In this document: in pieces, positions 1-44,965 of the stretch
Numbering within the stretch: position 1 is the first letter of the stretch
Layout: each line of letters opens with the position of its first letter
Assembly (NCBI GenBank): GCA_011939005.1
Contig: GCA_011939005.1_4858.1
Reading direction: 5' to 3' (one strand)
DNA from: a phage
DNA: 64,000 nt
Made by a program: the position numbers and the translations under genes
Notes under the pieces: generated by a model
Database searches by the model: none
What the model was told of the DNA's origin: nothing
The model's input: the letters and a program-made list of their open reading frames with translations, nothing else

Positions 1-3000
1 GCCTGGAATAAACTGAATCAGTTCGGTGGCTGGGCGCGCGGTAAAATCGCGGGGATGGGCGGCGGAGAAGGTCCTGGTTTCTTAACCCGGATGCGTGGCC
101 TTATCAGCGGTAGTGTCCGTGGGGGCTTTGAAGCGGTAAGCTCTTTCGGTAAAGGATTGCTGGGTATCCGCGACGTTTACGATGACCACGGTAATGTTGT
201 ACTGCAAGGTGCACGTCTGGAAGCTGGAGAATACTATCAGGTCATTGATGGTAAAATGGTTCAGCTGAAAACGCTGGACGACATCAAACTGGGGAGTGAT
301 ATTGTTGACTCCGCAGGTAATCTGGTATTAGCAGCCGCTGACTTAGCCGCTGCGGGTAAACTCCGCTACTATAAAGGCGGGAAAATCCAAGCACTGACCC
401 AAGGTCTGGCCAGTAAGATTGGCTTAGGCTTTAATAAGGTGGCTAAGCTACCGAAACGGTTCCTGGATTTCCTGTCACCGAAAGCGGGCAGCATCGTTGG
501 TAAGATTAAGGACTGGCTGAACGAGATTCCGGAAGGCGAAGAAAAGACACGTCTCCAGAAAGCGTTCAACCGCGTAACGAGCTTACCGGGTAAAGTGCTC
601 GGTTTTGCGAAACGTGGTGTCGACCGTCTGAAAGACATGATTACCGACAACCCACTGACGCGTTGGTGGAAAGGCCGTAAAGATGGTGGGGGTGGTGGTT
701 TCAGTCTCTTCTCATCAACCGGCAAGAAAACCAACCACATCCTTATCCGTATCTATAAACTGTTGAACCAACGTTTACCGGGCGATCCGGAAGACGAAAG
801 TTGGACAGAAGAAATGGAGAAGGGTGTCGGTGGCGGTGGTAGTACGATCGGCCGTGCAGTTCGCGGGGCGTATAATCGTGCGAAATCGTCGTTGTCTGAA
901 CGTTTTGGTGGACGTTGGTCAAGAACAAAAGCGTTCTTTGGTCGTGGACGTGACCGCCTGCGTGGTTGGTTCAGTGGTTTCCGAGGCCGGGCTGGGGATA
1001 TGCTCGATGGATATCGTGGAGCACGACACGACATTGCTACACGTTACGAAGTTGAACGTCGGTTGGCTGGACGCGATGACGATGTTGCTGAGTTTTATCG
1101 CAGCCATTTGAACGCGAAAGGTGGTCTTTCTGGCCGTAAAGTCTACGGTGACGCGAAGGACGACCTTGAGACCGCGCGCGATGCAGCAGGTCGGGTTATC
1201 AACAAAGGGAAGAATGCTGCCAAGTCTGCAGGTGCAAGGTTATTCGAACGCTTGGACCGAATGATCGGCTTGCAAGAGATGTCATGGTTTAACACCATGC
1301 GCGAATCAGTATCCCGTGCAGGTGGTGACGATGGCATTATTCGTACCATGTTTGCGAAGTTCGGTAAACGTAACAAGCCACCTGAAAGTGATGAAAAACG
1401 CGACTACCTTAACTTCTTCAAACGTTGGCGTGAGAAACGTAAGGAGAAGAAAGAGAAAGCGCAGGGCTCCAAAGGGAAATCTGGCGGTCTGTGGGATATG
1501 GTGAAAGGCTTACCTATCATCGGTCCCATCGTCAGTATCTTGGGAACTGTGGGTAATATACTCGGTTCTATCACGAAATGGGGTGTGTTAAAACCAGTAG
1601 GTCTTTTAGGTAAGGCTGCGTGGAATGTCGGTAAGTTCGCAGTAACCCGTTTGGCGGCACCCGCGGTGTCCGCTGTGGCAACTGCGGCATCTGCCGTCGT
1701 GACAGCAGTGGGCTGGCCGGCAATTCTTATCGGTGGTGCGATCGCCGCGGCTGGTTACGCCGCGTACAGGATTGCAACGACTACCTATACCCAGTACCTG
1801 GATAAGATGCGTTTAGCTCAGTACGGTTTCCGTGATTACGATAAGTGGTCGTCGGACGACGGGGCGAAAGCGCGTTACTTAGAAGACGCATTGCGTGAGT
1901 ATGTGTCTTACGCGGAAGATGGCCAAGCCAGTCTCCGTGGGCTAAGTGGAAAAGACGTTCAGAAGTTAGCTGAAGGGTTCGGTATTAACGTTGAGGAAAA
2001 AGGCGAGATGTTGGCCTTCCAAGCGTTTATGCTTCAGCGCTTTATTCCGATTTATCTCCGCTGGATTACGGCACTGAAGTCAATGCCGAACAGTATCCAG
2101 TTGGCTGACGTCGGCGATGCGAAGAAAGTATCGAAAGAGGACATGCTGACTCTCTTCAACAAAATGAAGATGACTAAGGATGCAAAAGCGTTCTCTTCGT
2201 TAACAGACCCACGCAAAGTCAACCAAGGTTTCTTCTCGAAAGCTTGGGACGTTGTAACCTTTACACCGAAGGAGTTCTTGAGCGGTGAAGAGGTTATGGA
2301 AGTGCAGAATGAAGTCGAGCGTGCAATCAAGTCCAGAATGGACGATAAGAAAGCACGTAAGTACGGAATGGCACCGGCCGTGGAGGGGATTAAGTCCGCG
2401 GGCGTTGATGAAGCTATCAACAAACTTGGACAGTTGGATAACGAACGTAATAAAAATCTGGCGAAGGTAGAAGGTTGGGAAGACGGAACAGAGCAGGTTC
2501 AGATTCAGGTAGACTGGAATGCGGTGCTCGACCAGAAAGACATGAATGCGATGGAATCGGTGCGTTGGAAGACTTACGGCTTTACCACCATCGATAACGC
2601 CACCCGCACTTTGATCACGGTATTCGAGAAGAACGTCATCAAAGACATTGACGTGAAAACCGCAAGCTACAAAGGAGATTGGAAGAAAGCCATCGCCACG
2701 ATGGTTCCAGACGCTATCGGTACACCGAAAGAAGATCGTTTGAAACGGTGGTTCTTTGACCGTTTCTTACCGGTATTCATGACGTATTTGGTTGGGGTGA
2801 AGCGTTACCTGCCAACAGCCGATCCGCTGAACTTGAAACTGACCGGCGGCTACCTGTACGAAATCAGTCTGATGATGTCAACTGCCTACAGCCTGAAAGG
2901 TGGTATAAGACAGTCGGTGTGGGAAGTGAATATCAACCCATTAGGGGGTGAGGCTAACACGAACCCATCATCCATCAAAGCCGAACTGGAAACGCTGAAG

Positions 3001-4578
3001 CTGCTGTCAAAAGAAGCTGACCTTGCCGTGCGTAACATGATTAAAGCCATTAGAAATAATGGCAAGCGTGCGCGCTGGAAGGATCGTAACAAGAACCGCA
3101 GTTCTCTGGAAGTTACCGGTGAGGATGAAGAAGACTCGAACATCAGTTCGGGAGATTCTTTGTCATCTGACGGTGCTCGCGCCTCAGGCTACATTCCATC
3201 GGGTACGAGTGGTGGTGTGCCGGGTAACTTGGGTCAAGTCGTCGATGCGGTTGGTGGTGTGCGGAACTACGCTGCAATGACCACTGGTTCGTCTTCGATT
3301 AACCTGAGTGATGTGAAAGACGGTGATTATAAGTCACTGGCTGAAAAATACCCGATAGAAATGTTGGGTAGAAAGGGTGCGTTGAACGTTCCGAATATCA
3401 AAGCATTGATTACCGATGCGGCGAACATGATGGGCGTGCCACCTGCAGTGGCGTTAGCAATGGCTAAGGCGGAGTCCGGATTTAACTACACCGCTAAAAA
3501 CCCGTATGCTTCGGCGTCTGGGCTGTTCCAGTTCATTGACGGCACGTGGAACGGGATGATGAAGGGGTATTCGCGGAAGTTTGGTATTCCGCGTGTTAAC
3601 CAAATGGACCCGTGGGCGAATGCTATATTGGGTGTACAGTTCATTCGTGACAACATCCAACAAGCACAGCGTGACCTGGGTGGTAAAGCACCACCTCCAG
3701 CCGTGGCTTATCTGTACCACTTCTTGGGTGCAGGCGGCGGTAAGAAGTTCTTGGAAGCATGGAAGCGTAATCCGAATATGGCGGCATCGAGTGCTCCTGG
3801 GATTACATCTGCAATACTGAGAGGGAATGCCAACGTCTTCTACAGCAACGGTCGTATACGTAGCGTAGACGGGGTTATTCAGGAACTGAACCGCCGTATG
3901 GGCGCAATTTCCGCCAACGAAGTCGCTGCCGATCCGAGTAAGACGAAGGATATGGTTGCAGGCTTGTCGCCTAATTCACCAACCAACCCGGCAGCAGCAA
4001 TGGGTGCACCGGCCGCTAATGATCCGAGTCTGTCGCCAGCAGATAACCTGCCAGCAGATAATGCTAATCGTCGTGATGACGCATTGACGCAGAAAGGGGC
4101 CATGGCGGCACAAGATGCAATGGCTACCGCCGCAGGTAATGTAGGACCAGCAGCACCTACACCAACCACAGGCGGTACCGGAACATCCGATGCCTCAACA
4201 ACGGCCGAAACCGTAGCGTCGCAAGCTGCAGCAGAAGGATTGTCTGCGACGGATGTTGCTAAAGTGAAAGCAGGCGCGGAAGCGCAGGTTAACGCAGCAG
4301 CTCGTCCAGTTGCCGCTCCAACTTCTGATGCTACAGCATCGACGCCAACGCTGAATGGTGACCCGATGGATGTTCAGCAGCTCAAGGTACTGATTCAGTC
4401 TCGCGATTACTTGAAAGAGATTCGTGATATTTTGAAATCAAATCCGAGAGCAGCAAACGACACGCGTGGTGGTAGTATCCAGCAAGCGGCAAATGTGGCT
4501 CCTCCGGGCTCAGCTGCACGTAGGCAGGAAATAACCCAACCGACACCGTCGTTAAACGTAAGTCGGAAAGCAAGCTAA
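1..4578 (+). CDS. virion tape-measure-like / ejection protein with lytic transglycosylase (SLT) domain; 5' partial
   Basis: Frame 1 is open from base 1 (first in-window ATG at 55) to TAA at 4576-4578. Gly-rich linkers, hydrophobic helices (about nt 1510-1770), SLT motif ESGFN..AKNPYASASGLFQF..DGTW (about nt 3440-3560), Ala/Pro/Thr-rich linker near the C-terminus. Confidence 0.65.
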   Translation, partial: AWNKLNQFGGWARGKIAGMGGGEGPGFLTRMRGLISGSVRGGFEAVSSFGKGLLGIRDVYDDHGNVVLQGARLEAGEYYQVIDGKMVQLKTLDDIKLGSDIVDSAGNLVLAAADLAAAGKLRYYKGGKIQALTQGLASKIGLGFNKVAKLPKRFLDFLSPKAGSIVGKIKDWLNEIPEGEEKTRLQKAFNRVTSLPGKVLGFAKRGVDRLKDMITDNPLTRWWKGRKDGGGGGFSLFSSTGKKTNHILIRIYKLLNQRLPGDPEDESWTEEMEKGVGGGGSTIGRAVRGAYNRAKSSLSERFGGRWSRTKAFFGRGRDRLRGWFSGFRGRAGDMLDGYRGARHDIATRYEVERRLAGRDDDVAEFYRSHLNAKGGLSGRKVYGDAKDDLETARDAAGRVINKGKNAAKSAGARLFERLDRMIGLQEMSWFNTMRESVSRAGGDDGIIRTMFAKFGKRNKPPESDEKRDYLNFFKRWREKRKEKKEKAQGSKGKSGGLWDMVKGLPIIGPIVSILGTVGNILGSITKWGVLKPVGLLGKAAWNVGKFAVTRLAAPAVSAVATAASAVVTAVGWPAILIGGAIAAAGYAAYRIATTTYTQYLDKMRLAQYGFRDYDKWSSDDGAKARYLEDALREYVSYAEDGQASLRGLSGKDVQKLAEGFGINVEEKGEMLAFQAFMLQRFIPIYLRWITALKSMPNSIQLADVGDAKKVSKEDMLTLFNKMKMTKDAKAFSSLTDPRKVNQGFFSKAWDVVTFTPKEFLSGEEVMEVQNEVERAIKSRMDDKKARKYGMAPAVEGIKSAGVDEAINKLGQLDNERNKNLAKVEGWEDGTEQVQIQVDWNAVLDQKDMNAMESVRWKTYGFTTIDNATRTLITVFEKNVIKDIDVKTASYKGDWKKAIATMVPDAIGTPKEDRLKRWFFDRFLPVFMTYLVGVKRYLPTADPLNLKLTGGYLYEISLMMSTAYSLKGGIRQSVWEVNINPLGGEANTNPSSIKAELETLKLLSKEADLAVRNMIKAIRNNGKRARWKDRNKNRSSLEVTGEDEEDSNISSGDSLSSDGARASGYIPSGTSGGVPGNLGQVVDAVGGVRNYAAMTTGSSSINLSDVKDGDYKSLAEKYPIEMLGRKGALNVPNIKALITDAANMMGVPPAVALAMAKAESGFNYTAKNPYASASGLFQFIDGTWNGMMKGYSRKFGIPRVNQMDPWANAILGVQFIRDNIQQAQRDLGGKAPPPAVAYLYHFLGAGGGKKFLEAWKRNPNMAASSAPGITSAILRGNANVFYSNGRIRSVDGVIQELNRRMGAISANEVAADPSKTKDMVAGLSPNSPTNPAAAMGAPAANDPSLSPADNLPADNANRRDDALTQKGAMAAQDAMATAAGNVGPAAPTPTTGGTGTSDASTTAETVASQAAAEGLSATDVAKVKAGAEAQVNAAARPVAAPTSDATASTPTLNGDPMDVQQLKVLIQSRDYLKEIRDILKSNPRAANDTRGGSIQQAANVAPPGSAARRQEITQPTPSLNVSRKAS

Positions 4579-28962: not shown

Positions 28963-29681
28963 TATTCTCCTCGCAACTGCGGTGGAATGTATTCACCTGT
29001 GCACATTTCGCGGTGAGCTTCTAACATGCGTTCGAAGCCGTACGTACGCGCGACCAGGGCCAAATGATAGATGCGTGCCGTAGAATACGCTTCCTTCGCA
29101 GCATCAAAGTTAGCGTTATGCTCGTACGCTTCTTTGCCGCGGGTCCAATGGTGCGCTTCTGCGTGCCAGTTCGGTTCCAGGCCAAACGCATATGCAATAC
29201 GTTCTGCAGTCCGGTCAGAGTCCAATATAGAAAACTTGCGGTACTTGCCCGGCGGGATATCGCACTGCGCGAATGCGTTCATCAGAATTGGAGCATCGAA
29301 ATCGGGACCACGCATGGTGATAACCATTTTCACGTTGCCCAGATCATCCAACCATTTTTTGGCCGCCCACAGCGCTTCTGGCAGTGGAGTGGTCCCAGAA
29401 AACGCTTCAATACGTGCTTTCTCGCTCGGTGCGTATTCGGGGTCGCCTTTACCTTCCCAATAACCGACCGTTTGTGGATCGATGTAGAAGATTTCTTTTG
29501 CTTTTGCATCATTGGGGTCGATTTTGTGGTAACATGAACCGATCATTTTCATTGTCGGAACATCGAATGCCACGTTTGCCAACGTTAAGATGTAGGCATC
29601 TGGACGTAAAGCCAGGGTCTCTAAGTCCGTCCCAACAACAACGGTGGGCGTTAAAACAGGCAGAATTTTAGGATATGTCAT
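28962..29681 (-). CDS. putative DnaQ-like 3'-5' exonuclease (T4 DexA-like)
   Basis: 239 aa; Exo I-like motif VVGTDLETLAL and further blocks (DFDAPILMNAF, AHHW) aligning by eye to T4 exonuclease A; stop overlaps RNase H start by 1 nt. Confidence 0.6.
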   Translation of the reverse strand: MTYPKILPVLTPTVVVGTDLETLALRPDAYILTLANVAFDVPTMKMIGSCYHKIDPNDAKAKEIFYIDPQTVGYWEGKGDPEYAPSEKARIEAFSGTTPLPEALWAAKKWLDDLGNVKMVITMRGPDFDAPILMNAFAQCDIPPGKYRKFSILDSDRTAERIAYAFGLEPNWHAEAHHWTRGKEAYEHNANFDAAKEAYSTARIYHLALVARTYGFERMLEAHREMCTGEYIPPQLRGE

Positions 29682-29726
29682 TTCAACTCTCCACGAGATT
29701 ATATATCACACTATTGACTATTAACG

Positions 29727-29765
29727 TAAAAAAGGAAATCCCCTCTTACCCGAAGGTAAGAGGGA
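29727..29765 (-). terminator. rho-independent terminator (UUCG loop on minus transcript)
   Basis: Stem ccctcttacc / ggtaagaggg with loop cgaa (29741-29764), A-run 29728-29733. Confidence 0.55.
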
Positions 29766-29769
29766 GTTT

Positions 29770-30249
29770 TCATTGCACAAGGCAACTACTTTTGTGCCGT
29801 TCGTAGGCACGATTAAAAGACTCTCTGTCTTCGCGATAGCCGCGAATGAGAGACTTAATCTGTCGTGACAAATCACGACTAATGTCTTGAGGGCTACGAG
29901 AACCAGGGTCGAGATATATCCCGGAGGGTATACCATGAAGAGTGGGGCGAATAAACTCTTCACAAAGCGGTGCGGTCATCGGGGTGTGCCACCCTTTAGC
30001 TTCTGCATAGTTGTTTACTGACTTAGCGTACAGATAAACGTAATAAGCATAAGCGTTCACATCCGCAACAAACATTTTCCCTGCCAGCTTTTTCGCCTCA
30101 GGACTGTTCCCACCGTTATATACTGGTGGGTGTTCTAAAGGACGAAAAGGCCAATCTCCGGTTGAGGAGTAATCTGGGTCTACGTGACGGATGACCCCAG
30201 GGCATCCTGTCAACAATAGCACCAGTATCGCCACCAAAAATAACTTCAT
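29770..30249 (-). CDS. putative lipoprotein
   Basis: 159 aa; N-terminus MKLFLVAILVLLLTGC has signal peptide with lipobox LTGC; ATG with RBS gaggag overlapping end of upstream gene. Confidence 0.55.
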   Translation of the reverse strand: MKLFLVAILVLLLTGCPGVIRHVDPDYSSTGDWPFRPLEHPPVYNGGNSPEAKKLAGKMFVADVNAYAYYVYLYAKSVNNYAEAKGWHTPMTAPLCEEFIRPTLHGIPSGIYLDPGSRSPQDISRDLSRQIKSLIRGYREDRESFNRAYERHKSSCLVQ

Positions 30250-30258
30250 GTATGCTCC

Positions 30259-30768
30259 TCATGGATTATTAAGCGTCTTGATAATCTCCTGTCGGAAATC
30301 GTTTGCCGCCTGCGACCCCACTGGGCGAGAAGCCGCCTGGTGTTTCTTGGCAGGCGGGCTAGACGGATTTAACGGTGCCTGTGGTGTTACCGGCTTGAGT
30401 TCTTCAGGCGGAACCGCGGCCCCAGTGCCTGTCCCTGTTGGAGATTTGGTACCATCATATGGCGATCGAGAACCCAGGCATGTGAAGAGACGATCGTACA
30501 GCTTATTGTTCTCCACTTCGCCATGATCGGACTTCTCTTTTAGCTCCTTATAGGATATCTCCAGATACTGAGTACGCGATTGGACGCTAACCAGTGTGTG
30601 GTATTGAACAATATAGGCATATGAGACAAATGCAGAGAACGCGACCAGTGCCACTATCACTAGTGTCACTATCTTCCCGGCTCGTGTTACTTTCTCCCCC
30701 TCGCCCGGTTTAAATGCTTCCCACAGCATCTGTAAGAATGGAAGCAGTTTGAAAACTGATGCTATCAT
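30259..30768 (-). CDS. membrane protein with Pro-rich C-terminal region
   Basis: Track start 30774 is GTG; ATG at 30768 has RBS gaggtg. Transmembrane segment IVTLVIVALVAFSAFVSYAYIV, then Pro-rich tail. Confidence 0.5.
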   Translation of the reverse strand: MIASVFKLLPFLQMLWEAFKPGEGEKVTRAGKIVTLVIVALVAFSAFVSYAYIVQYHTLVSVQSRTQYLEISYKELKEKSDHGEVENNKLYDRLFTCLGSRSPYDGTKSPTGTGTGAAVPPEELKPVTPQAPLNPSSPPAKKHQAASRPVGSQAANDFRQEIIKTLNNP

Positions 30769-30792
30769 GCTCACCTCGGAGAGTTTTTAATT

Positions 30793-32172
30793 ATGTATGA
30801 TTTACAAGGCTTTATTCAAATAGCGGCTCTGATTGATAATGGCCCTGGCAACACCGCTCCGGTAGGTGAGTTGTCTGAGCTGTCATATTCGTTCGCTAAA
30901 AGCAAGCAGTATTTTACTAAAGAAAATCTGCAGGTGGAACTGGTTGCTTTTACTTCTAAACGTGACGAGTTGCCTATTAAGACCCCGGCCGTCTTTAGCG
31001 ACCACGTTCTTACTGTTTCCCAATGGATCTACCAACAGTCTATCCTGGGCAACTTAAGAAACGACGAAGTTGAATTCCAGCGTTTGCTGTTGGGGCAATT
31101 TAATAGTGTCATCAGCGGTGTTCAGTCTGGCGCGATGATTCAGACTAACAGTAACTGGTTCCCACGTTGGGTCAGTTGGAAACTTGAAACCACAGCAGAT
31201 AAAGTCGAAGACCCATCTGATGTGAATAACCAGATTATTCTCTGGTTTGCTGATGAAGATTTCAATCAGGACTATACCGGATTTGAAATTGAAGTCCAAA
31301 TGCCGATATTACCGGTTGATACTTTCTTGGCTGTGAAATCTGTAGTCGAAAAGGCAATGGAAGGGTTCAACCTTCCGGATCACCATAATAAGATTAACGA
31401 ATTAGCTGACGGTTATCCGTACACTAGCCTGATTACTAACATCTATACTTGGCACGACCAGGAAGACTTTGATTCCACCTTACCGATACCGATGTCGGTT
31501 ATCATCTACGGCCGCGCAGGTCGTAACCCGAGCAGGATTAAACAAGCGTTACGTGATTACATTTTGGCAAACTCCAGTTTTACTGTGGCGTTGGGTGTCA
31601 AGGTGTTCCCAGAAATCTTTACGACCACCAAGTTCACAATTGTTCCCGGTTGGTCAATTCGTGGGATTCCAAATGAGGAAGATGTTGCGGCATTATACTC
31701 GCCGATTCTCCCATATGATTTCTGGGTCAAAGCAATCTCCCGATTTGGGGAGTGGACTGTTCAAACCATTACGGAAAAAAATAGTGGAGCGATCTCGATT
31801 CCAACTACCGATGTAACGGATTTACCGTCCATCTATAAATCGTTGAACGCCGTGGTTATCGCTGGCCCTGAAAACGATTCACGCAAAACGACCCTGCATG
31901 ACACAATTCCTGACTACGCATTAATCGGCACTAATAATGCGGATATTGCGAGAATGTCGAAGAAAACCACCGAGTGGTTGGATCTGTTCTTCCAGGCGTT
32001 AATTGCAGCCGAAGAGTACCATCCGCACTCCACCCCGTTGGATATCGTGAAGCTCGTAGACGACGTTGATCCTAACGTTTACTTCTACGTCTTCGAATTC
32101 GATAACGTGGAATATCGTGTCTTGGCCCGTAAGGCCATTTGGGATGTTCCTGCGGTAGAGCCAAAAGCCTAA
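30793..32172 (+). CDS. hypothetical protein (plus-strand island)
   Basis: 459-aa ORF, ATG with RBS ggagag; only 24 nt from the divergent minus-strand start. Confidence 0.55.
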   Translation: MYDLQGFIQIAALIDNGPGNTAPVGELSELSYSFAKSKQYFTKENLQVELVAFTSKRDELPIKTPAVFSDHVLTVSQWIYQQSILGNLRNDEVEFQRLLLGQFNSVISGVQSGAMIQTNSNWFPRWVSWKLETTADKVEDPSDVNNQIILWFADEDFNQDYTGFEIEVQMPILPVDTFLAVKSVVEKAMEGFNLPDHHNKINELADGYPYTSLITNIYTWHDQEDFDSTLPIPMSVIIYGRAGRNPSRIKQALRDYILANSSFTVALGVKVFPEIFTTTKFTIVPGWSIRGIPNEEDVAALYSPILPYDFWVKAISRFGEWTVQTITEKNSGAISIPTTDVTDLPSIYKSLNAVVIAGPENDSRKTTLHDTIPDYALIGTNNADIARMSKKTTEWLDLFFQALIAAEEYHPHSTPLDIVKLVDDVDPNVYFYVFEFDNVEYRVLARKAIWDVPAVEPKA

Positions 32173-32182
32173 GGAGGGTTAA

Positions 32183-32806
32183 ATGGCACAACTGTTGCCT
32201 AACACGCCTCAGGTTAACCTTGAGGGGTTGTTCAAGGTTAAGGCACCTTATACGTTGCCAGATAAAGTGATTTACCGTGTTGACGCGGTACAGAACTTTC
32301 CGAAACTCCAACGTAATAATATTGACGTTTATAACAAGTATTATAAACCTGTCGGCCTAACTCGTGACGACTATATCAGCGACGCTAATGTCGAAGCCTC
32401 GATTGTAACATTAAAGTCGAGGGACGGTCAAGTCTACGAGTTGCCTGATACGTACATTGAGACGTATCCTGGACTGAACGGGTTAAATTATAGACGCAAT
32501 GTGGTGGTTATTGACCTGGCATTAATACCCGAATACGTCGATGTCACACTGCTAACGAACGACCTGAAAAGCATTTTAGAACGCGGTTTAGGAATCGAAG
32601 CACGTGTGGACATCACGTCGATGGATTACGAAGGGACGGTGACGGAAGAAGAACACTTGCAAATGGAAGCGGTGCGTAAAGCCAAAATCCGTGAGCAGGT
32701 TCCTCTGACAGAACAAGTTGCAACACTCACTAAGCAGAATCAAGAACTGCAGGCGTTGAATGATGCGATGTTGAAAATCCTGAAAGATAACGGGTTAACA
32801 AATTAA
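32183..32806 (+). CDS. hypothetical protein with C-terminal coiled-coil-like segment
   Basis: 207-aa ORF, ATG with RBS aaggaggg; followed by bidirectional terminator. Confidence 0.55.
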   Translation: MAQLLPNTPQVNLEGLFKVKAPYTLPDKVIYRVDAVQNFPKLQRNNIDVYNKYYKPVGLTRDDYISDANVEASIVTLKSRDGQVYELPDTYIETYPGLNGLNYRRNVVVIDLALIPEYVDVTLLTNDLKSILERGLGIEARVDITSMDYEGTVTEEEHLQMEAVRKAKIREQVPLTEQVATLTKQNQELQALNDAMLKILKDNGLTN

Positions 32807-34057: not shown

Positions 34058-34288
34058 CTAGTTACGGTCGGAATTAAAGACGTGCCAGGTACTACGCCAG
34101 CGAAAGAATCGGGTCATGAAACCACGCACGTGGTAGCCTGAGAACAACATCCAGATGGCAAGAAAGAGTTGCGCCCATGGGGACGTGAGTTCCATCAGAT
34201 GTGCGACAATCGCACCGATTACCAACATTACCGTGGAGAATAGCAAACCGTACATCATCGGAATGTTGTGGCTATAGCGTTTCTCCAT
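34058..34288 (-). CDS. small two-helix membrane protein (holin-like topology)
   Basis: Two hydrophobic helices (GLLFSTVMLVIGAIVAHL; WAQLFLAIWMLFSGY) and basic C-terminus. Track start 34324 is GTG; first ATG at 34288; start uncertain. Confidence 0.4.
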   Translation of the reverse strand: MEKRYSHNIPMMYGLLFSTVMLVIGAIVAHLMELTSPWAQLFLAIWMLFSGYHVRGFMTRFFRWRSTWHVFNSDRN

Positions 34289-34334
34289 CCAGTAGAGAAA
34301 ATTTATTAAACGTTTCACGAGCACACATCCAAGA

Positions 34335-34375: not shown

Positions 34376-34969
34376 TTACGCTTCGGCCTCAAAGAACGGC
34401 TGGTTCGGTACCACTGCATATTCGAGCACGAAAAGATGTTCTGGGGCATCTTCTGCTCGCCACAGTTTGTGACACGTTGCCAGTTTTTCCAGGATGGTCA
34501 ACCAGCTGAGCTGGCAGAAAGCACGGTCGCCGAAGAACAGTTTCTGCAGTGCAATCGACACATCCATATACGCCTGTTTGAAGTCGAGTTCTTTATCGTA
34601 ACCCGCCGACTGTCGCCACGTCAGCACGAAACCTGCTTCGGTTTCGTTAATTGCTGGACGTAAACCACAAATCCACATCAGCGCCAGATTAACGTTCCAG
34701 TCGAATTCGATACCTTCGTCTTCGTCATCACCAAACGCCGCGTTTAACGCATCGTAGAAACCGTGGTTCTCTGCGAACCATTCGCCATACTCAACGTATA
34801 CCGGTGCTTCGACAGCTTCCCCATCGACTTCACCGATAGGACGCTCTACATAGTTCGGGTTGGTTTGAACGTGTTCCGCACCCGCGCGAATTAATTCGTA
34901 GACATCTTTGGCGGTGATTTGTGCGGCTGTTTTAAGACCTGGATACCAGGGGCGTGTTACGAGTGTCAA
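34376..34969 (-). CDS. hypothetical protein (apparent TTG start)
   Basis: 197 aa; no in-frame ATG/GTG near the 5' end; TTG at 34969 has strong RBS aaggag and overlaps upstream stop by 4 nt. Confidence 0.5.
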   Translation of the reverse strand: MTLVTRPWYPGLKTAAQITAKDVYELIRAGAEHVQTNPNYVERPIGEVDGEAVEAPVYVEYGEWFAENHGFYDALNAAFGDDEDEGIEFDWNVNLALMWICGLRPAINETEAGFVLTWRQSAGYDKELDFKQAYMDVSIALQKLFFGDRAFCQLSWLTILEKLATCHKLWRAEDAPEHLFVLEYAVVPNQPFFEAEA

Positions 34970-35688
34970 AGCAATGCTCCTTTCATGATAGTGTTATTTG
35001 CCAGTAGTGTACCGGCCGCAGGTGATATTTTGGTGTACAGCGTATCCCAGATTTTCTGAAGCTCAGCGACGCGTTGGTCGCGGTCTTCCTTCGCAAAAGC
35101 AAGCTGACGTGTTTCAGCTTTCGGTGGCGTCATTTTCGCACCGTAGAATGCTGCGTCTTTTCGGTAGCTGGCCATCCAGCGTTTCCCGACCGATGATTTC
35201 TTTTTAATCATCGCAACAGCAGCGCTCTCACCGAAGCGGTAGCCTAATGCGATTTCGGCTGTGCTCGGCTTGCGTTTGAGTTGTTTTGTCAGATGATCCT
35301 CGATGTGTTTCATGTAAACAGCAGCAAGCTGTACAGCATATTTCGGTTTATTAAGGTCTGCGTTCTTTGGGATGTTAAGTTGTTTCCCATACAGACGTAT
35401 CATGGAGCGTTTAGTGCCTGTCGTCATTTGGACAACACTACTAGCACTGCTCGATTTATTCTTACCCACGTTTTTATTAAAACGGGATTCGCGGTAAATG
35501 GTGGTCGCAAGCATCCCGGCATGTACACCTTGCTTTTGAGATGCAGAGACGATGAGAGGTTTAATCTCATTGAACTGGTCCTGGATAAGGACGAATTCTT
35601 TTTGGTGTTTGTTACTGGTGGTCTGGTAAGAAGCGTTGCTGTTGAATGTGGTCACTGCTACCAGAAGAAATAAAATGGTGCGAAACAT
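34966..35688 (-). CDS. secreted lytic transglycosylase-like protein (candidate endolysin)
   Basis: 240 aa; N-terminal signal peptide MFRTILFLLVAVTTFNSNA; ESRFNKNVGKNKSSSASSVVQMTTGT aligns with the SLT motif of the large virion protein at 1-4578. Confidence 0.55.
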   Translation of the reverse strand: MFRTILFLLVAVTTFNSNASYQTTSNKHQKEFVLIQDQFNEIKPLIVSASQKQGVHAGMLATTIYRESRFNKNVGKNKSSSASSVVQMTTGTKRSMIRLYGKQLNIPKNADLNKPKYAVQLAAVYMKHIEDHLTKQLKRKPSTAEIALGYRFGESAAVAMIKKKSSVGKRWMASYRKDAAFYGAKMTPPKAETRQLAFAKEDRDQRVAELQKIWDTLYTKISPAAGTLLANNTIMKGALL

Positions 35689-43255: not shown

Positions 43256-43639
43256 TTACTGGTCGAGCGCTATTGAACCACGCACTTCGCCTTGTTGTTC
43301 AATAACCAGGAGGCGCTGTTTGGTTTTCGTATTGTAAGCGAGCGACGCGCGAAGCGTCGGGTCGCACGTTATTGTCTCTACCGGCACAATCTCTTGTGCC
43401 TTTGAGTTCAACAGAAAGTAGTAACCTGCCGGACAAGTTTCCTCGCCCTTTGCGTGGACTAGGATGTACTCGTCGTGCCGGCTGACTTCTTCACATCTAC
43501 CATCGTCGCCAGTACAGACTTCGAATGAAGGCGGGTTGTACTGATACGGTGTGCCCGGCAGTAAATCTTCTACGCTGGTTGTAGCTGAAGCGGAAGCGGT
43601 CAAGAACACCGCCGCGATAATACCCATAAATCCACGCAT
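43256..43639 (-). CDS. secreted Cys-containing protein (paralog family member 1)
   Basis: 127 aa; signal peptide MRGFMGIIAAVFLTASASA; motif ETCPAGYY; ATG with RBS aaggaaa. Confidence 0.5.
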   Translation of the reverse strand: MRGFMGIIAAVFLTASASATTSVEDLLPGTPYQYNPPSFEVCTGDDGRCEEVSRHDEYILVHAKGEETCPAGYYFLLNSKAQEIVPVETITCDPTLRASLAYNTKTKQRLLVIEQQGEVRGSIALDQ

Positions 43640-43652
43640 GTTGTTTCCTTAC

Positions 43653-44063
43653 TTAAAAGTCGAGTTTATTGATGCCTACGTTTTTCTTAATCGTAGGGTC
43701 GTACATGATAACCGTCAGGGCATTGTCGCCTGGGTCGCGAGTAAACTCGGCAACGGCTTCACCACTGCAGGCTTGGTTATCATTATAGTTCATGGATTCG
43801 GCTTGCCCGGTTGCCATGTTAATAACCCCGTATTCAGGGTCGCCACATGCGACACCGCCCATCGTTTTCACTAACAGGTAACGGTTGTTATCGGACATCG
43901 CAACGATCTGGCAGCTACCGCCTTGTACGTCAGAGTTCTGGCACCAGAACTGTCCGCCGTATTCGTGATCGTTAACAACTTTTGGTAACTCGATACTTCC
44001 AGCGCGAGCGAAGAAGCTAATGGCCAGAGTAGCAAGTAAAACTGGTAATAAAAAATGTTTCAT
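43653..44063 (-). CDS. secreted Cys-containing protein (paralog family member 2)
   Basis: 136 aa; signal peptide MKHFLLPVLLATLAISFFARA; motif VACGDPEY; RBS gaggtg. Confidence 0.5.
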   Translation of the reverse strand: MKHFLLPVLLATLAISFFARAGSIELPKVVNDHEYGGQFWCQNSDVQGGSCQIVAMSDNNRYLLVKTMGGVACGDPEYGVINMATGQAESMNYNDNQACSGEAVAEFTRDPGDNALTVIMYDPTIKKNVGINKLDF

Positions 44064-44085
44064 AATAGCACCTCAATTTTTTGAG

Positions 44086-44577
44086 TTATTCTGAATAGTC
44101 GATTGTTTTGATGGTTTCCATACCGTAGTACATAGCGATGGAGGCCAGAGTTTTGGTATCAGGTCGCTGTACAAAACCGGCCCTGAAATCTTTGCTGCAA
44201 ATTTTCTCCACTGATAGTTCATCACGATTAGGGATAAGCCATAACGCGTCACCGTTGTGACGGTCGACTGCACCCCACCAACCACCTGGGCAATCTTTAT
44301 CGCCCGGACGGTGTACGATAGCGACACGTCCGTTGAAGGATATGTCAACTACACGACACTGTTTCTTAAGCAGCTTACGCGCATTGCACCAGAACGGCTT
44401 ATCATTAAGATTGATGGTGCGGGTATATGCTGGAATGCTGCCGTTAATACTGCCCTGGAACCCGCTGAATTCGTCAGCGCGTGCCTTAGAAATCCGTAGC
44501 CCAACAACAACTGCCATCAACAGCACAGTAAAAAGCACCACCTTAATCAGGTGGTGATTAACGTTATTGCATTTCAT
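44086..44577 (-). CDS. secreted Cys-containing protein (paralog family member 3)
   Basis: ATG at 44577 (RBS ggaga) gives N-terminus MKCNNVNHHLIKVVLFTVLLMAVVVGL; motif KDCPGGWW. Confidence 0.5.
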   Translation of the reverse strand: MKCNNVNHHLIKVVLFTVLLMAVVVGLRISKARADEFSGFQGSINGSIPAYTRTINLNDKPFWCNARKLLKKQCRVVDISFNGRVAIVHRPGDKDCPGGWWGAVDRHNGDALWLIPNRDELSVEKICSKDFRAGFVQRPDTKTLASIAMYYGMETIKTIDYSE

Positions 44578-44965
44578 TTTTGATATCTCCACGAATGAGG
44601 GTGATGCGACCAACGAGCACATCGTTGTGATAAAAACTCACAGCAACCAGATCTGGCAATTCCAACGGCGATACGCTGACCGAAGTGACTTTTGGTTGAT
44701 CGCACGATATGTCGATTAATCGCTGATACATTTTCAGTTTCTTATCAGCGATAACCAGCCCTGTGCAGTTCTTACCATCCGTCAGTTTGTAGATTTGTAA
44801 CTGTTCGACCTCACGCATCAGTTCCGGTTTTTCATTCGGTGCAATGCCATAATCCGAATCAGCTGATGTGTATTCAGTCACGTCTGGCTTATCGAAAGCA
44901 TAAGTTGCTGCGATACCACATGCGGCCAGAACTACTACTGCTTGTAAGAACTTCTTGATAGTCAT
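44564..44965 (-). CDS. putative lipoprotein (paralog family member 4)
   Basis: 133 aa; signal peptide with lipobox VVLAACG; motif KNCTGLVI. Confidence 0.5.
   Translation of the reverse strand: MTIKKFLQAVVVLAACGIAATYAFDKPDVTEYTSADSDYGIAPNEKPELMREVEQLQIYKLTDGKNCTGLVIADKKLKMYQRLIDISCDQPKVTSVSVSPLELPDLVAVSFYHNDVLVGRITLIRGDIKNEMQ

Follow-up and report, generated by a model that had tools for sequence, protein, structure and literature searches.

Genes gp204 and gp205 of SPN3US-like jumbo phages as a probable two-component spanin

Spanin systems that can be compared with the locus

The known spanin families include lambda Rz/Rz1, P2 LysB/LysC, T7 18.5/18.7, T4 PseT.3/PseT.2 and phiKZ gp141/gp141.1. 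In lambda, Rz is a type II inner-membrane protein with a helix-linker-helix layout in which C99 ends the first helix. Its partner Rz1 is a tiny, unstructured outer-membrane lipoprotein with a Pro-rich region, encoded by a gene embedded in Rz. T4 PseT.3/PseT.2 is the prototype of the "separated" spanin: the two genes are adjacent and separate, with a 4-nt overlap in most family members, and lie apart from the holin and the endolysin. The T4 i-spanin (117 aa) has no cysteine, and the T4 o-spanin (83 aa; Fig. 8 legend) is larger than Rz1, with a predicted C-terminal helix and two conserved periplasmic cysteines which are essential in T4. Close relatives of the T4 o-spanin reach about 99 aa including the signal peptide. 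The jumbo phage phiKZ encodes gp141/gp141.1, a 168-aa type II membrane protein and a 120-aa outer-membrane lipoprotein, which were validated as spanins by lambda complementation (Manohar et al. 2026). With an overlap of 116 nt, their genes are immediate neighbours of the holin, the regulator and the transglycosylase endolysin, and share the strand of the endolysin.

SpaninDB (Kongari et al. 2018) gives the ranges within which such systems fall. The periplasmic parts of the two proteins together total 62 to 300 residues, a periplasmic cysteine is present in 507 of 528 spanin systems, and more than 120 of the i-spanins are without a predicted coiled coil. SpaninDB also lists CR5_183/CR5_184 of Cronobacter phage CR5 as a separated i-/o-spanin, an assignment which is a computational, bioinformatic call.

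The 64-kb stretch of DNA analysed here (the window) belongs to a Seoulvirus, an SPN3US-like jumbo phage, and is 99.3% identical to Escherichia phage EC001 and 97.2% identical to SPN3US. Two neighbouring genes on its minus strand, the counterparts of SPN3US gp204/gp205, encode a 169-aa membrane protein (100% identical in EC001 and 95.9% in SPN3US) and a 159-aa lipoprotein. Genes of this type are "hypothetical" in all the records and PHROGs examined, and in the literature no paper was found that assigns a function to SPN3US gp204/gp205, Asesino gp223/gp224 or phiKZ gp156/gp156.1. We suggest that the pair is probably a two-component spanin with the separated architecture. A spanin would be an ordinary phage function of a known kind. 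The features discussed below are:

29728..29765, minus strand: intrinsic-terminator-like hairpin (11-bp stem, UUCG loop, T-run), from a consensus scan
29770..30249, minus strand: gene of the 159-aa lipoprotein, the o-spanin candidate (PHROG 8165; orthologue of SPN3US gp205 and CR5_184, homologue of phiKZ gp156)
29779..30102, minus strand: conserved C-terminal domain of the lipoprotein, from invariant columns and a low-confidence AF2 model (pLDDT 59)
30103..30201, minus strand: Pro-rich, poorly conserved tether of the lipoprotein, aa 17-49, below the lipid anchor
30202..30249, minus strand: signal peptide and lipobox LLTG/C, from the sequence, with the Cys16 codon at 30202-30204
30250..30261, minus strand: gene junction, from the sequence, made of the TGA stop and the 9-nt spacer GGAGCATAC
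30259..30768, minus strand: gene of the 169-aa inner-membrane protein, the i-spanin candidate (open reading frame, PHROG 8719; orthologue of CR5_183 and SPN3US gp204)
30268..30312, minus strand: C-terminal amphipathic helix of the membrane protein, aa 153-167, motif FRQEIIKTLN (AF2; hydrophobic moment 0.48)
30334..30477, minus strand: Pro/Gly/Thr/Ser-rich flexible linker, aa 98-145, from composition and low pLDDT
30478..30600, minus strand: periplasmic heptad (coiled-coil-like) helix, aa 57-97, ending in Cys97, from AF2 and the heptad register
30601..30672, minus strand: transmembrane segment, about aa 33-56, from hydropathy, N-in/C-out by the positive-inside rule
30712..30765, minus strand: N-terminal amphipathic helix, aa 2-19, from AF2, predicted to be cytoplasmic or at the membrane surface
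34966..35688, minus strand: SLT-type transglycosylase, the putative endolysin equivalent to SPN3US gp198 (PHROG 4067 transglycosylase, E 1.9e-57)

The two genes and their predicted transcription unit

Both open reading frames are real genes and not chance ORFs, because they match PHROGs and are constantly adjacent in 73 phage records. The membrane-protein gene matches PHROG 8719 (E 3.5e-73) and the lipoprotein gene matches PHROG 8165 (E 1.3e-59), families which carry unknown function only. Each gene was found in 73 phage records, with an identical breakdown by organism and host, and the lipoprotein gene lies next to and directly downstream of the membrane-protein gene every time, down to about 28-34% identity. 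Such a position fits the rule for spanins, by which the o-spanin gene is embedded in the i-spanin gene, overlaps it or follows it directly. The phages with the pair infect Salmonella, Escherichia, Erwinia, Cronobacter and Proteus and keep it in a fixed position, and the pair is also present in uncultured relatives known from metagenomes.

A sequence-only reading of this DNA had described a 169-aa protein with one transmembrane helix and a Pro-rich tail, followed after 9 nt by a 159-aa lipoprotein with the lipobox LTGC, whose ribosome-binding site overlaps the upstream gene. All of this was borne out. The membrane-protein gene begins with an ATG at 30768, preceded by a GAGGTGA Shine-Dalgarno 3 nt upstream, and ends with a TGA at 30259-30261; an alternative in-frame GTG two codons 5' of the ATG would give a 171-aa protein. 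The spacer, together with the GA of the TGA stop, forms a GAGGAG Shine-Dalgarno which lies over the upstream stop. A Shine-Dalgarno at or over the upstream stop is kept in all ten of the diverged phages compared, where the genes are separated by 2-9 nt or overlap by 4 nt. Judging by this junction, the two genes are translationally coupled.

The terminator-like hairpin begins 4 nt past the lipoprotein stop and has a predicted RNA fold of -22.1 kcal/mol (z = -3.1). A hairpin with a T-run is found at the matching place in 10 of 10 diverged phages. The hairpin is kept while the stem sequences differ, which points to compensatory changes, and the hairpin is predicted to close the two-gene unit. At the other end, a divergent virion gene begins at 30793, 24 bp from the membrane-protein gene. 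A scan for sigma-70 promoters returned 2 matches against 2.4 expected, which is no excess over chance; for context, SPN3US-like phages use their own RNA polymerases.

The two proteins and the case for a spanin

Hydropathy (Kyte-Doolittle peak 2.46) marks a single strong hydrophobic stretch in the membrane protein, at about residues 28-58, with K20, K26, R29 and K32 on the N-terminal side of the transmembrane segment. The predicted topology, one N-terminal TMD with the N-terminus in and the C-terminus out, is that of an i-spanin. AF2 monomer models of the two proteins are of low confidence (pLDDT 63 for the membrane protein and 59 for the lipoprotein). The former shows a continuous helix from 29 to 97 which includes the transmembrane segment. 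Its periplasmic part, residues 57-97, keeps one heptad register, with LIVMFYW at 60% of the a/d positions versus 31% overall. Cys97 (codon 30478-30480) stands at a d position, is invariant in 10 diverged phages and ends its helix as C99 ends the first helix of lambda Rz. The periplasmic domain of an i-spanin is expected to be mostly alpha-helix or coiled coil; here the heptad helix covers only about 40 of the 113 periplasmic residues. It is followed by two short C-terminal helices, and a Pro-rich disordered linker makes up about half of the periplasmic domain. The linker (10 Pro in 48 residues) differs in length among phages and has a mean pairwise identity of 31%, and residues 105-138 have pLDDT below 50. 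Past the linker, even the remotest metagenomic partners retain the C-terminal motif (F/L)RxE(I/L)(I/L)xx(L/I)N(G). In its helix-linker-helix layout the protein resembles lambda Rz, and on this analogy helix 153-167 is proposed as the contact site for the lipoprotein.

Conservation of the membrane protein is strongest elsewhere. Its N-terminal helix and TMD, and not the periplasmic domain, are the best-conserved parts: residues 1-28 have a mean pairwise identity of 68%, versus 31-45% in the periplasmic parts. A part that did no more than anchor the protein would not be expected to be so strongly conserved. One candidate explanation was the promoter of the divergent gene, which has to be as close as 24 bp; it was rejected, as synonymous-codon identity at the N-terminus is not above that elsewhere in the gene. 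The constraint therefore acts on the protein.

The conserved cytoplasmic end and TMD would also suit a second explanation, in which a holin or pinholin, the membrane protein, controls a signal-bearing endolysin, with the lipoprotein in an accessory role. The putative endolysin does have such an N-terminus (MFRTILFLLVAVTTFNSNAS), a signal or SAR-like sequence, and the endolysins of CR5, Asesino, Phobos and three metagenomic relatives carry comparable signals. In CR5, Asesino and Phobos the endolysin has no annotated holin near it. Against this, a 113-residue periplasmic domain with a heptad helix, a Pro-rich linker and a C-terminal helix is not holin-like, and in SPN3US-type phages a separate small ORF with two TMDs (34058-34318) lies just downstream of the endolysin. 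The phiKZ holin gp142 is similar to nothing in the EC001 genome. Altogether a holin role seems very unlikely.

The lipoprotein starts with MKLFLVAILVLLLTGC, in which Cys16 sits in a canonical lipobox, and some UniRef members of its family are named "Lipoprotein". Its signal sequence, MKLFLVAILVLLLTG, runs up to this cysteine, and the residue at +2 is Pro and not Asp, so outer-membrane sorting is expected. The predicted SPase II lipobox and outer-membrane sorting signal are those of an o-spanin. Cys16 is invariant in 10 phages, where the lipobox reads LTGC, LTSC, LVGC, LVAC, LTAC, LAGC or LCSC. The lipobox pattern was matched by 29 of 34 family representatives, none of which has Asp at +2, and three more have a lipobox-like cysteine. 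Below the anchor, the tether (6 Pro in 33 residues) has a mean pairwise identity of 24%, and residues 11-44 have pLDDT below 50. The C-terminal domain consists of a helix at 50-84 with the motif VNAYAYYVY, a loop with Cys96, and a helix at 120-157 with Cys156. Both Cys96 (29962-29964) and Cys156 (29782-29784) are present in all 34 family representatives.

Taken together, the periplasmic parts come to 113 + 143 = 256 residues, which lies within the SpaninDB range. All three periplasmic cysteines, Cys97 of the membrane protein and Cys96 and Cys156 of the lipoprotein, are invariant, and spanins nearly always have at least one. A cysteine pattern of 1 + 2 is common among spanins. The lipoprotein resembles the T4 o-spanin in being larger than Rz1, in its predicted C-terminal helix and in its two conserved periplasmic cysteines. 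As for lambda Rz and Rz1, homotypic disulfides may be expected here. The Pro-rich region of the lipoprotein is another likeness to Rz1, which differs in that the window lipoprotein has a separate gene and 143 mature residues, about half of them helical.

The sequence-only reading had raised two objections to a spanin, that both proteins are larger than Rz/Rz1 and that they lie about 4 kb from the candidate endolysin. The distance itself is right: the endolysin at 34966-35688, which tblastn with phiKZ gp144 also matches (E 2e-10), is 4.2 kb away. Neither objection carries weight, as large spanins are the norm in jumbo phages, the validated phiKZ spanins are of similar size, SpaninDB totals extend beyond the 256 residues found here, and the T4 spanin genes likewise lie apart from the holin and the endolysin. 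The window pair shares with phiKZ gp141/gp141.1 the predicted architecture of a type II membrane protein plus an outer-membrane lipoprotein, the jumbo-phage setting and the strand of a transglycosylase endolysin, and it differs from that pair in being separated and in having two inverted virion genes between itself and the endolysin. The order of SLT endolysin, two inverted virion genes, TM protein and lipoprotein is conserved, and it is tighter in distant metagenomic relatives, where the two inverted virion genes are the only genes between the endolysin and the pair.

CR5_183/CR5_184 are orthologous to the window pair, with 32% and 29% identity in full-length alignments and tblastn E values of 7e-11 and 1e-5; these identities are below the 40% cut-off for family clustering in SpaninDB. 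The gene order and the 9-nt spacer are those of the window, with a virion gene upstream on the opposite strand and an exonuclease and RNase H downstream. The CR5 proteins have the same TMD, Cys, lipobox and C-terminal Cys, and Pepcoil predicts a coiled coil at 66-99 of CR5_183. The C-terminus of the CR5 i-protein differs and is longer (DRMDKITRHINN).

No sequence or profile similarity to any validated spanin was found with Pfam, PHROGs, tblastn or hhalign, and by these searches the pair does not belong to the lambda, P2, T7, T4 or phiKZ gp141/gp141.1 sequence families. Undetectable similarity to validated spanins is usual for spanins. Neither window protein matches Pfam Rz/Rz1, and the T4 pair shows no sequence similarity to the window pair. 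In tblastn and hhalign searches with the spanins of phiKZ (gp141/gp141.1), Ea35-70, EL and 201phi2-1 there was no similarity either, with hhalign probabilities of 0.1% and 5% for the phiKZ proteins. For both window proteins nothing in Pfam, NCBIfam or PADLOC was above threshold. The sub-threshold matches (FtsH_ext, 19.8 bits versus a cut-off of 25.5; PhrA; a T6SS-immunity lipoprotein) were dismissed because they are driven by hydrophobic segments. When the two AF2 models, both of low confidence, were searched against BFVD with Foldseek, nothing beyond the family matched significantly.

The search for a competing spanin covered the window and the whole EC001 genome. A strict six-frame lipobox scan of the window had this lipoprotein as its sole match. 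A looser rule was run with positive controls; it admits LNGC-type boxes as in phiKZ, which the strict rule would miss, and it demands Lys or Arg in the n-region and so misses CR5_184. It added one weak match in the window, at 44564-44965 (LAAC), which has no upstream membrane partner. The pair at 44086-44965, a TM/signal protein and the LAAC ORF, was rejected as a rival, as its gene order is wrong and the four ORFs in that neighbourhood belong, as distant paralogues, to one secreted family with Cys residues. In EC001 and the window there are just two other credible lipoproteins, ACEC001_1580 and ACEC001_1395, and they were rejected as two-component or unimolecular spanins, having no upstream TM partner and no C-terminal TMD. 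No homologue of the phiKZ, 201phi2-1, EL or Ea35-70 spanins was found anywhere in the EC001 genome. The sequence-only reading had named what would count against a spanin: no periplasmic coiled coil in the membrane protein, together with a canonical spanin elsewhere. What was found instead is a periplasmic heptad helix, a Pepcoil coiled coil in the CR5 orthologue, and no other spanin candidate in the 99.3%-identical genome.

The same scans bear on a third explanation, raised earlier, in which the lipoprotein blocks a receptor or excludes superinfecting phages in the manner of T5 Llp or Cor, perhaps with help from the membrane protein as in T4 Imm/Sp, and so protects the infected cell or the released virions from the receptor. 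It is true that this is an outer-membrane lipoprotein of a lytic phage without functional annotation from sequence. The pair nevertheless keeps its one position in phages of five or more host genera, and it extends to uncultured relatives and to Pseudomonas phages. This makes a receptor-specific blocker unlikely, since such a blocker should track host and receptor, and the earlier view that exclusion is "equally possible" was too generous. The lipoprotein is also always paired, and translationally coupled, with a type II membrane protein, and it is far larger than Llp or Cor. Searches of Pfam, NCBIfam and PADLOC place neither protein in the T5 Llp, Cor or T4 Imm/Sp families. The solitary, opposite-strand lipoprotein ACEC001_1580 of EC001 is a better fit to that role. 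We consider exclusion of this kind very improbable for the pair.

If the pair is a spanin, as seems probable, the following sequence of events may be proposed. One small transcription unit would start just after the divergent virion gene and end at the hairpin terminator. The first product would insert into the inner membrane with its N-terminus inside, and its periplasmic heptad helix of about 40 residues would probably form a dimer locked by a Cys97 disulfide. After this helix would come the flexible Pro-rich linker of about 50 residues and then the short amphipathic C-terminal helix. After export, the second product would receive its lipid at Cys16 and be sorted to the outer membrane, in whose inner leaflet it would be anchored and from which its helical domain with two invariant cysteines would hang by the Pro-rich tether. 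Contacts between their C-terminal parts would hold the two proteins together as a bridge across the periplasm. Lysis would end with the loss of the outer membrane: after removal of the murein by the exported SLT endolysin, the spanin would collapse, oligomerise and draw the two membranes together, and so destroy the outer one. We infer complex formation, disulfide bonding, membrane fusion and the timing of expression.

The gp156 family of phiKZ and other nucleus-forming phages

A more serious alternative comes from Pseudomonas phages. The family HMM of the window lipoprotein matches phiKZ gp156 (E 3.7e-10, 34.3 bits), against a top score of 6.8 bits among 200 shuffled sequences of gp156 and gp241. 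The hhalign comparison with gp156 gave a probability of 90.9% over 66 columns, and both Cys96 and Cys156 align with the two cysteines of gp156, within a homologous C-terminal domain. From Met5, gp156 reads MSRKFFLILLPLISGC. The genes for gp156.1, a TM protein, and gp156, annotated by number only, occupy a syntenic slot between a gp157-type virion gene and RNase H, in the same order as in the window, with a 20-nt spacer and no strong terminator after them. A gp156-type lipoprotein is present in 61 Pseudomonas jumbo-phage records. Foldseek matched the window lipoprotein best, though weakly (E 0.2-0.3), to "Lipoprotein" entries of Psa21, Noxifer and SL2, all Pseudomonas jumbo phages. Membership of the gp156 family is possible for these entries, as the SL2 protein has 133 aa, the length of gp156 from Met5.

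For the TM partner, the similarity between the window protein and phiKZ gp156.1 is not statistically significant. A similar N-terminal motif is found in gp156.1, 201phi2-1 gp242, Goslar gp189 and a PCH45 protein. With 96 aa, gp156.1 has about 35 periplasmic residues and lacks the Pro-rich linker and the FRQEII-type C-terminal helix.

The validated spanins of phiKZ are the other pair, gp141/gp141.1, and this opens a possibility which we hold to be less likely than a spanin, though not remote: that the genes form a trans-envelope module of nucleus-forming jumbo phages (Chimalliviridae) whose job is not disruption of the outer membrane. The module might exclude superinfecting phages at the envelope, sense or pass on a signal for lysis timing or lysis inhibition, or regulate the exported endolysin. 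Several observations are in its favour. Besides phiKZ, 201phi2-1 has the pair gp242/gp241 at this position plus a separate spanin. EL, Goslar, PCH45 and Special G keep the TM protein alone here, without the lipoprotein; EL has a spanin located elsewhere, and so does Ea35-70, a relative of Special G. In trimmed phiKZ TnSeq data, gp156 and gp156.1 are insertion-free, and a single 3-read insertion remains in each of gp141 and gp141.1. That both phiKZ pairs are near insertion-free argues against simple redundancy. Conservation peaks in the cytoplasmic N-terminal helix and TMD, as described above, and spanin-less phages do exist, 91 of 677 in one survey (Kongari et al. 2018). We also put forward, more tentatively still, that the gp204/gp205 family including phiKZ gp156.1/gp156 is a second, previously unnoticed trans-envelope module with a role other than outer-membrane disruption, which would act through its highly conserved cytoplasmic helix and anchor, in exclusion or the relay of a lysis signal.

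Other observations weigh against such a module. Pfam, NCBIfam and PADLOC gave no match, and no positive support for a specific alternative function was found. The long linker and conserved C-terminal helix of the SPN3US clade suit a fusion protein that spans the periplasm, and it is phiKZ gp156.1 that is without them. The data also fit an ancestral spanin which was displaced and reduced where an overlapped spanin was acquired. Polarity on the essential RNase H gene downstream (gp155) may explain the TnSeq result, and homology of the TM partners is not supported statistically. The reading of the pair as spanin-like held on nearly every feature open to computation, and, with a homologous phiKZ pair beside validated spanins, a non-spanin role is a lesser possibility.

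SPN3US is the genetic model for the giant phages of Salmonella, and its relatives are under development for biocontrol. Its lysis genes beyond the endolysin have been without annotation so far, and naming the pair as a probable spanin would complete most of the lysis gene set. Were the trans-envelope module true, SPN3US-like phages would be without a canonical spanin and would need a different route through the outer membrane. The gp156 lipoprotein family occurs in phiKZ, PhiPA3 and about 60 other Pseudomonas jumbo phages, beside a small membrane protein and validated spanins. Either nucleus-forming phages carry two spanin-like systems, or the gp156 family acts otherwise at the envelope, and both outcomes bear on how lysis is timed and executed in nucleus-forming phages.

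Genomic setting and transcription of the gene pair

Over positions 29000-32500 the window is 99.3% identical to Escherichia phage vB_EcoM_EC001 (EC001) and 97.2% identical to Salmonella phage SPN3US (genus Seoulvirus), and by this sequence comparison the phage is a phiKZ-related jumbo phage of the SPN3US type. In SPN3US numbering the two genes studied here are gp204 and gp205. They are flanked by the divergently transcribed virion gene gp203 and by the exonuclease/RNase H genes gp206/gp207, with the putative endolysin gp198 on the same strand at a distance of 4.2 kb. Both genes are labelled "hypothetical protein" in every record examined. Their products match PHROGs families 8719 (membrane protein) and 8165 (lipoprotein), both of unknown function, and Pfam, NCBIfam and PADLOC scans of both gave no match above threshold.

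Features of the gene pair (residue numbers within each protein; secondary structure of both proteins from AlphaFold2)
30259-30768 (-): membrane protein, 169 aa counted from the ATG
aa 2-19: N-terminal amphipathic helix
aa 29-97: long helix, the transmembrane domain (TMD) plus about 40 periplasmic residues
aa 105-138: Pro/Gly/Thr-rich disordered stretch, pLDDT below 50
C-terminal part: two short helices, the final one at aa 153-167
29770-30249 (-): lipoprotein, 159 aa, begins MKLFLVAILVLLLTGC
N-terminus: signal peptide and lipobox
aa 17-49: Pro-rich tether, poorly conserved
aa 50-84 and 120-157: two predicted helices of the conserved domain, with invariant Cys96 and Cys156

The sequence-only reading had described a protein with one transmembrane segment and a Pro-rich tail, followed after 9 nt by a lipoprotein whose ribosome-binding site overlaps the upstream gene, and this description holds. 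The membrane protein has one strong hydrophobic segment (about aa 28-58) and ten prolines at aa 98-145. Its TGA stop is followed by the 9-nt spacer GGAGCATAC and the lipoprotein ATG; the last two bases of the stop and the spacer together contain GAGGAG, so the ribosome-binding site of the lipoprotein overlaps the upstream stop. Directly 3' of the lipoprotein stop is a hairpin (11-bp stem, UUCG loop) followed by a T-run. All ten phages compared have a hairpin with a T-run at this position, with differing stem sequences, and these compensatory stem changes are good evidence for a real terminator. With the conserved terminator and the stop-overlapping ribosome-binding site, the pair is a discrete, translationally coupled two-gene unit.

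About 25-40 nt past the terminator, a similar AT-rich motif (TGTGATATATA, AATGTATAC or TGTGTATATA) occurs in all ten phages; in the window it falls within 29682-29740 (-), in the stretch that separates the terminator from the exonuclease gene. A related sequence, TTGTA(A/T)ATC, lies upstream of the membrane protein gene. Both may be phage-polymerase promoters.

Architecture and conservation of the two proteins

AlphaFold2 confidence was low (pLDDT 63 for the membrane protein, 59 for the lipoprotein), and the models were used for secondary structure only. In ten diverged phages the periplasmic helix of the membrane protein keeps a single heptad register, its a/d positions are 60% large hydrophobic residues (31% overall), and an invariant Cys97 sits at a d position at its end. 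The most conserved parts are the cytoplasmic amphipathic helix (68% mean pairwise identity) and the TMD (58%), against 31-45% for the periplasmic parts. Synonymous-codon identity is no higher in this N-terminal/TMD region than elsewhere, and the conservation therefore reflects a constraint on the protein. The C-terminal motif (F/L)RxE(I/L)(I/L)xx(L/I)N(G) is retained even in the most distant metagenomic partners.

A GAGGTGA Shine-Dalgarno sequence 3 nt 5' of the membrane protein ATG is kept in all relatives. The GenBank start of SPN3US gp204, 13 codons further in, is probably wrong, since the 13 residues that it leaves out are conserved among ten diverged phages. The codons omitted by the GenBank and RefSeq annotations (156 aa instead of 169 aa) correspond to window 30730-30768 (-); the 169-aa form has the strong Shine-Dalgarno sequence and the conserved N-terminus. 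The annotations of phages SEGD1 and Proteus phage 7 each miss one of the two genes.

A profile search for the lipoprotein found only 38 relatives among 1.8 billion representatives, and 34 were kept after fragments, garbage and already represented sequences were set aside. The lipobox pattern is present in 29 of the 34, with a lipobox-like Cys in three more, and in all 34 the mid Cys is kept, as is a second Cys three residues before the C-terminus. The +2 residue is Pro in the window phage and Asp in no family member, so the protein is expected to be sorted to the outer membrane. When all six frames of the window were scanned with a strict lipobox rule, 29770-30249 was the only lipoprotein.

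Both proteins occur in 73 phage records apiece, and the two sets agree in organisms and hosts (34 Erwinia, 33 Salmonella, 2 Escherichia, 2 Cronobacter, 1 Proteus and 1 "Enterobacteria"). The genes are adjacent and in the same order throughout, with a gap of 2-9 nt or a 4-nt overlap. Four distant metagenomic members share the gene context, and three have the SLT-type transglycosylase (the putative endolysin) near the pair: two with only two inverted virion genes in between, the third with two further genes. In several SPFM Salmonella phage records (LR5359xx) both genes match only partially or in 3-6 broken pieces (SPFM5-9, 12 and 14 by tblastn), and SPFM10 and 20 show odd protein lengths; this looks like frameshift-type assembly errors rather than real gene decay.

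Comparison with known spanins and lysis proteins

The Young laboratory describes two-component spanins as a type II inner-membrane protein and an outer-membrane lipoprotein with periplasmic cysteines, 62-300 combined periplasmic residues and helical or coiled-coil periplasmic content, the lipoprotein gene being embedded in, overlapping or immediately downstream of its partner. The pair fits this description with one reservation. Its combined periplasmic length is 256 residues and its cysteines follow a 1 + 2 pattern, but the agreement in helical content is less clear, the heptad helix taking in no more than about 40 of the membrane protein's 113 periplasmic residues. The spanin-like arrangement first proposed was a reasonable reading, and the two objections raised with it lose their force. 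The proteins are not too large, as the validated phiKZ spanins have 168 and 120 aa and those predicted for Ea35-70 have 154 and 167 aa. The distance of about 4 kb from the candidate endolysin is correct, but it does not weigh against a spanin, as the T4 spanin genes do not lie beside their holin and endolysin either.

In the SpaninDB supplement of Kongari et al. 2018, CR5_183 (171 aa) and CR5_184 (148 aa) of Cronobacter phage CR5 appear as a "separated" i-spanin/o-spanin pair, for which Pepcoil predicted a coiled coil at residues 66-99. The window pair is orthologous to them (32% and 29% identity, same spacer, same neighbours). SPN3US has no entry among the supplement rows listed.

A missing coiled coil, combined with a canonical spanin at another locus, would have undercut the sequence-only reading; the heptad helix is present, and EC001 offers no other candidate, so the reading is not refuted. 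The rest of its genome was scanned in six frames with a looser lipobox rule, which in positive controls recovers the phiKZ and Ea35-70 o-spanins and misses CR5_184 (n-region without Lys or Arg). Only two further credible lipoproteins were found, ACEC001_1580 (163 aa) and ACEC001_1395 (44 aa), neither with an upstream membrane partner or a C-terminal TMD. ACEC001_1580 (MN445185 136417-136908 (-), MKRLFIVFAFISLLTGC) is solitary and on the opposite strand; ACEC001_1395 (117487-117621 (+)) has the lipobox VCSC. For an exclusion or receptor-masking role ACEC001_1580 would be a better candidate than the pair, and we regard a receptor-blocking function of gp205 as very improbable. EC001 has no homologue of the phiKZ, 201phi2-1, EL or Ea35-70 spanins, nor of the phiKZ holin or regulator. 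A holin role for the pair itself is about as improbable.

The SLT-type putative endolysin at 34966-35688 (-) has a signal-peptide or SAR-like start, MFRTILFLLVAVTTFNSNAS. Such an N-terminus is present in all SLT proteins examined, including those of CR5, Asesino, Phobos and three metagenomic relatives, so lysis in this clade appears to use an exported endolysin, unlike phiKZ with its cytoplasmic gp144.

Two ORFs lie downstream of the endolysin. The 197-aa cytoplasmic protein at 34376-34969 (-) (PHROG 8114, unknown function; 4-nt overlap with the endolysin stop) is a candidate lysis regulator. The 86-aa ORF at 34058-34318 (-), which matches no family and has roughly two hydrophobic stretches, is a candidate holin or pinholin; it is unannotated in CR5, Asesino and Phobos. 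Four ORFs in a row at 43256-44965 (-), of 127, 136, 178 and 133 aa, all carry a signal-like segment at the N-terminus and have Cys positions in common; PHROGs 5248, 8968 and 17072 cross-match three of them. They form a small family of secreted paralogues without an assigned function, and one (44564-44965) has a weak LAAC lipobox. The 1507-aa ORF at 55-4578 (+) contains a second transglycosylase-like region, especially 3424-3906 (tblastn with phiKZ gp144, E 4.6e-18), and may be a virion-associated cell-wall hydrolase.

The phiKZ counterpart and the role of the pair

The gp203-like divergent virion gene has 288 records among phiKZ-related jumbo phages, including phiKZ gp157 (29.6% identity). Between gp157 and the RNase H gene gp155, phiKZ has two genes, gp156.1 and gp156 (AF399011 160184-160896 (-)). 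gp156.1 (96 aa) combines a TMD with an amphipathic motif at its N-terminus. The annotation of gp156 begins at a TTG codon; read from Met5, which has a GGTGGA Shine-Dalgarno sequence, gp156 begins MSRKFFLILLPLISGC and is a lipoprotein with the lipobox LISGC and two further cysteines, one in the middle and one close to the C-terminus. By profile comparison the window lipoprotein family is homologous to gp156: hhalign gave 90.9% probability (E 1e-6, 66 columns, both Cys aligned), and the family HMM scored gp156 at 34.3 bits (E 3.7e-10), against at most 6.8 bits for any of 200 shuffled sequences of gp156 and gp241. The membrane partners are alike in architecture and in an N-terminal motif, with sequence similarity below statistical significance. 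Phage 201phi2-1 has the same kind of pair (gp242/gp241), whereas in EL, Goslar, PCH45 and Special G the slot holds a longer coiled-coil membrane protein alone, without a lipoprotein. Conservation of gp156 extends to 61 records of Pseudomonas jumbo phages, each labelled "hypothetical", and our literature search found no paper mentioning it. With gp156.1 it forms a spanin-like pair that had gone unrecognised.

phiKZ, 201phi2-1, EL and Ea35-70 each have an additional "overlapped" spanin pair elsewhere, and that of phiKZ (gp141/gp141.1) was validated by lambda complementation. That phiKZ has two pairs leaves room for a different role for the window pair, as a distinct envelope module in a clade that would lack a canonical spanin. 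In the phiKZ TnSeq data, after trimming, gp156 and gp156.1 had no insertions and gp141 and gp141.1 one each (three reads), which argues against simple redundancy of the two pairs; the TnSeq authors put emphasis on polar effects, and RNase H, encoded just downstream of gp156, is likewise free of insertions. The strong conservation of the amphipathic helix and TMD points the same way. We nevertheless consider such a module rather unlikely.

We lean instead towards the pair being the ancestral spanin of the group, kept as the only spanin by the SPN3US-related clade, because the SPN3US-type proteins carry the spanin features, the EC001 genome has no alternative candidate, and the pair stays close to an exported endolysin. 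Lineages that acquired an overlapped spanin beside the endolysin would then have reduced the ancestral pair, as in phiKZ gp156.1 without linker and C-terminal helix, or lost the lipoprotein, as in EL, Goslar and PCH45.

As a spanin, the pair would be an unannotated member of a family that is catalogued but only computationally assigned, and its biology would be ordinary; the gain would be an annotation fix for the SPN3US group. The link to phiKZ gp156.1/gp156 is apparently unreported, and it poses the question of whether these phages have one spanin system, two, or a new envelope function.
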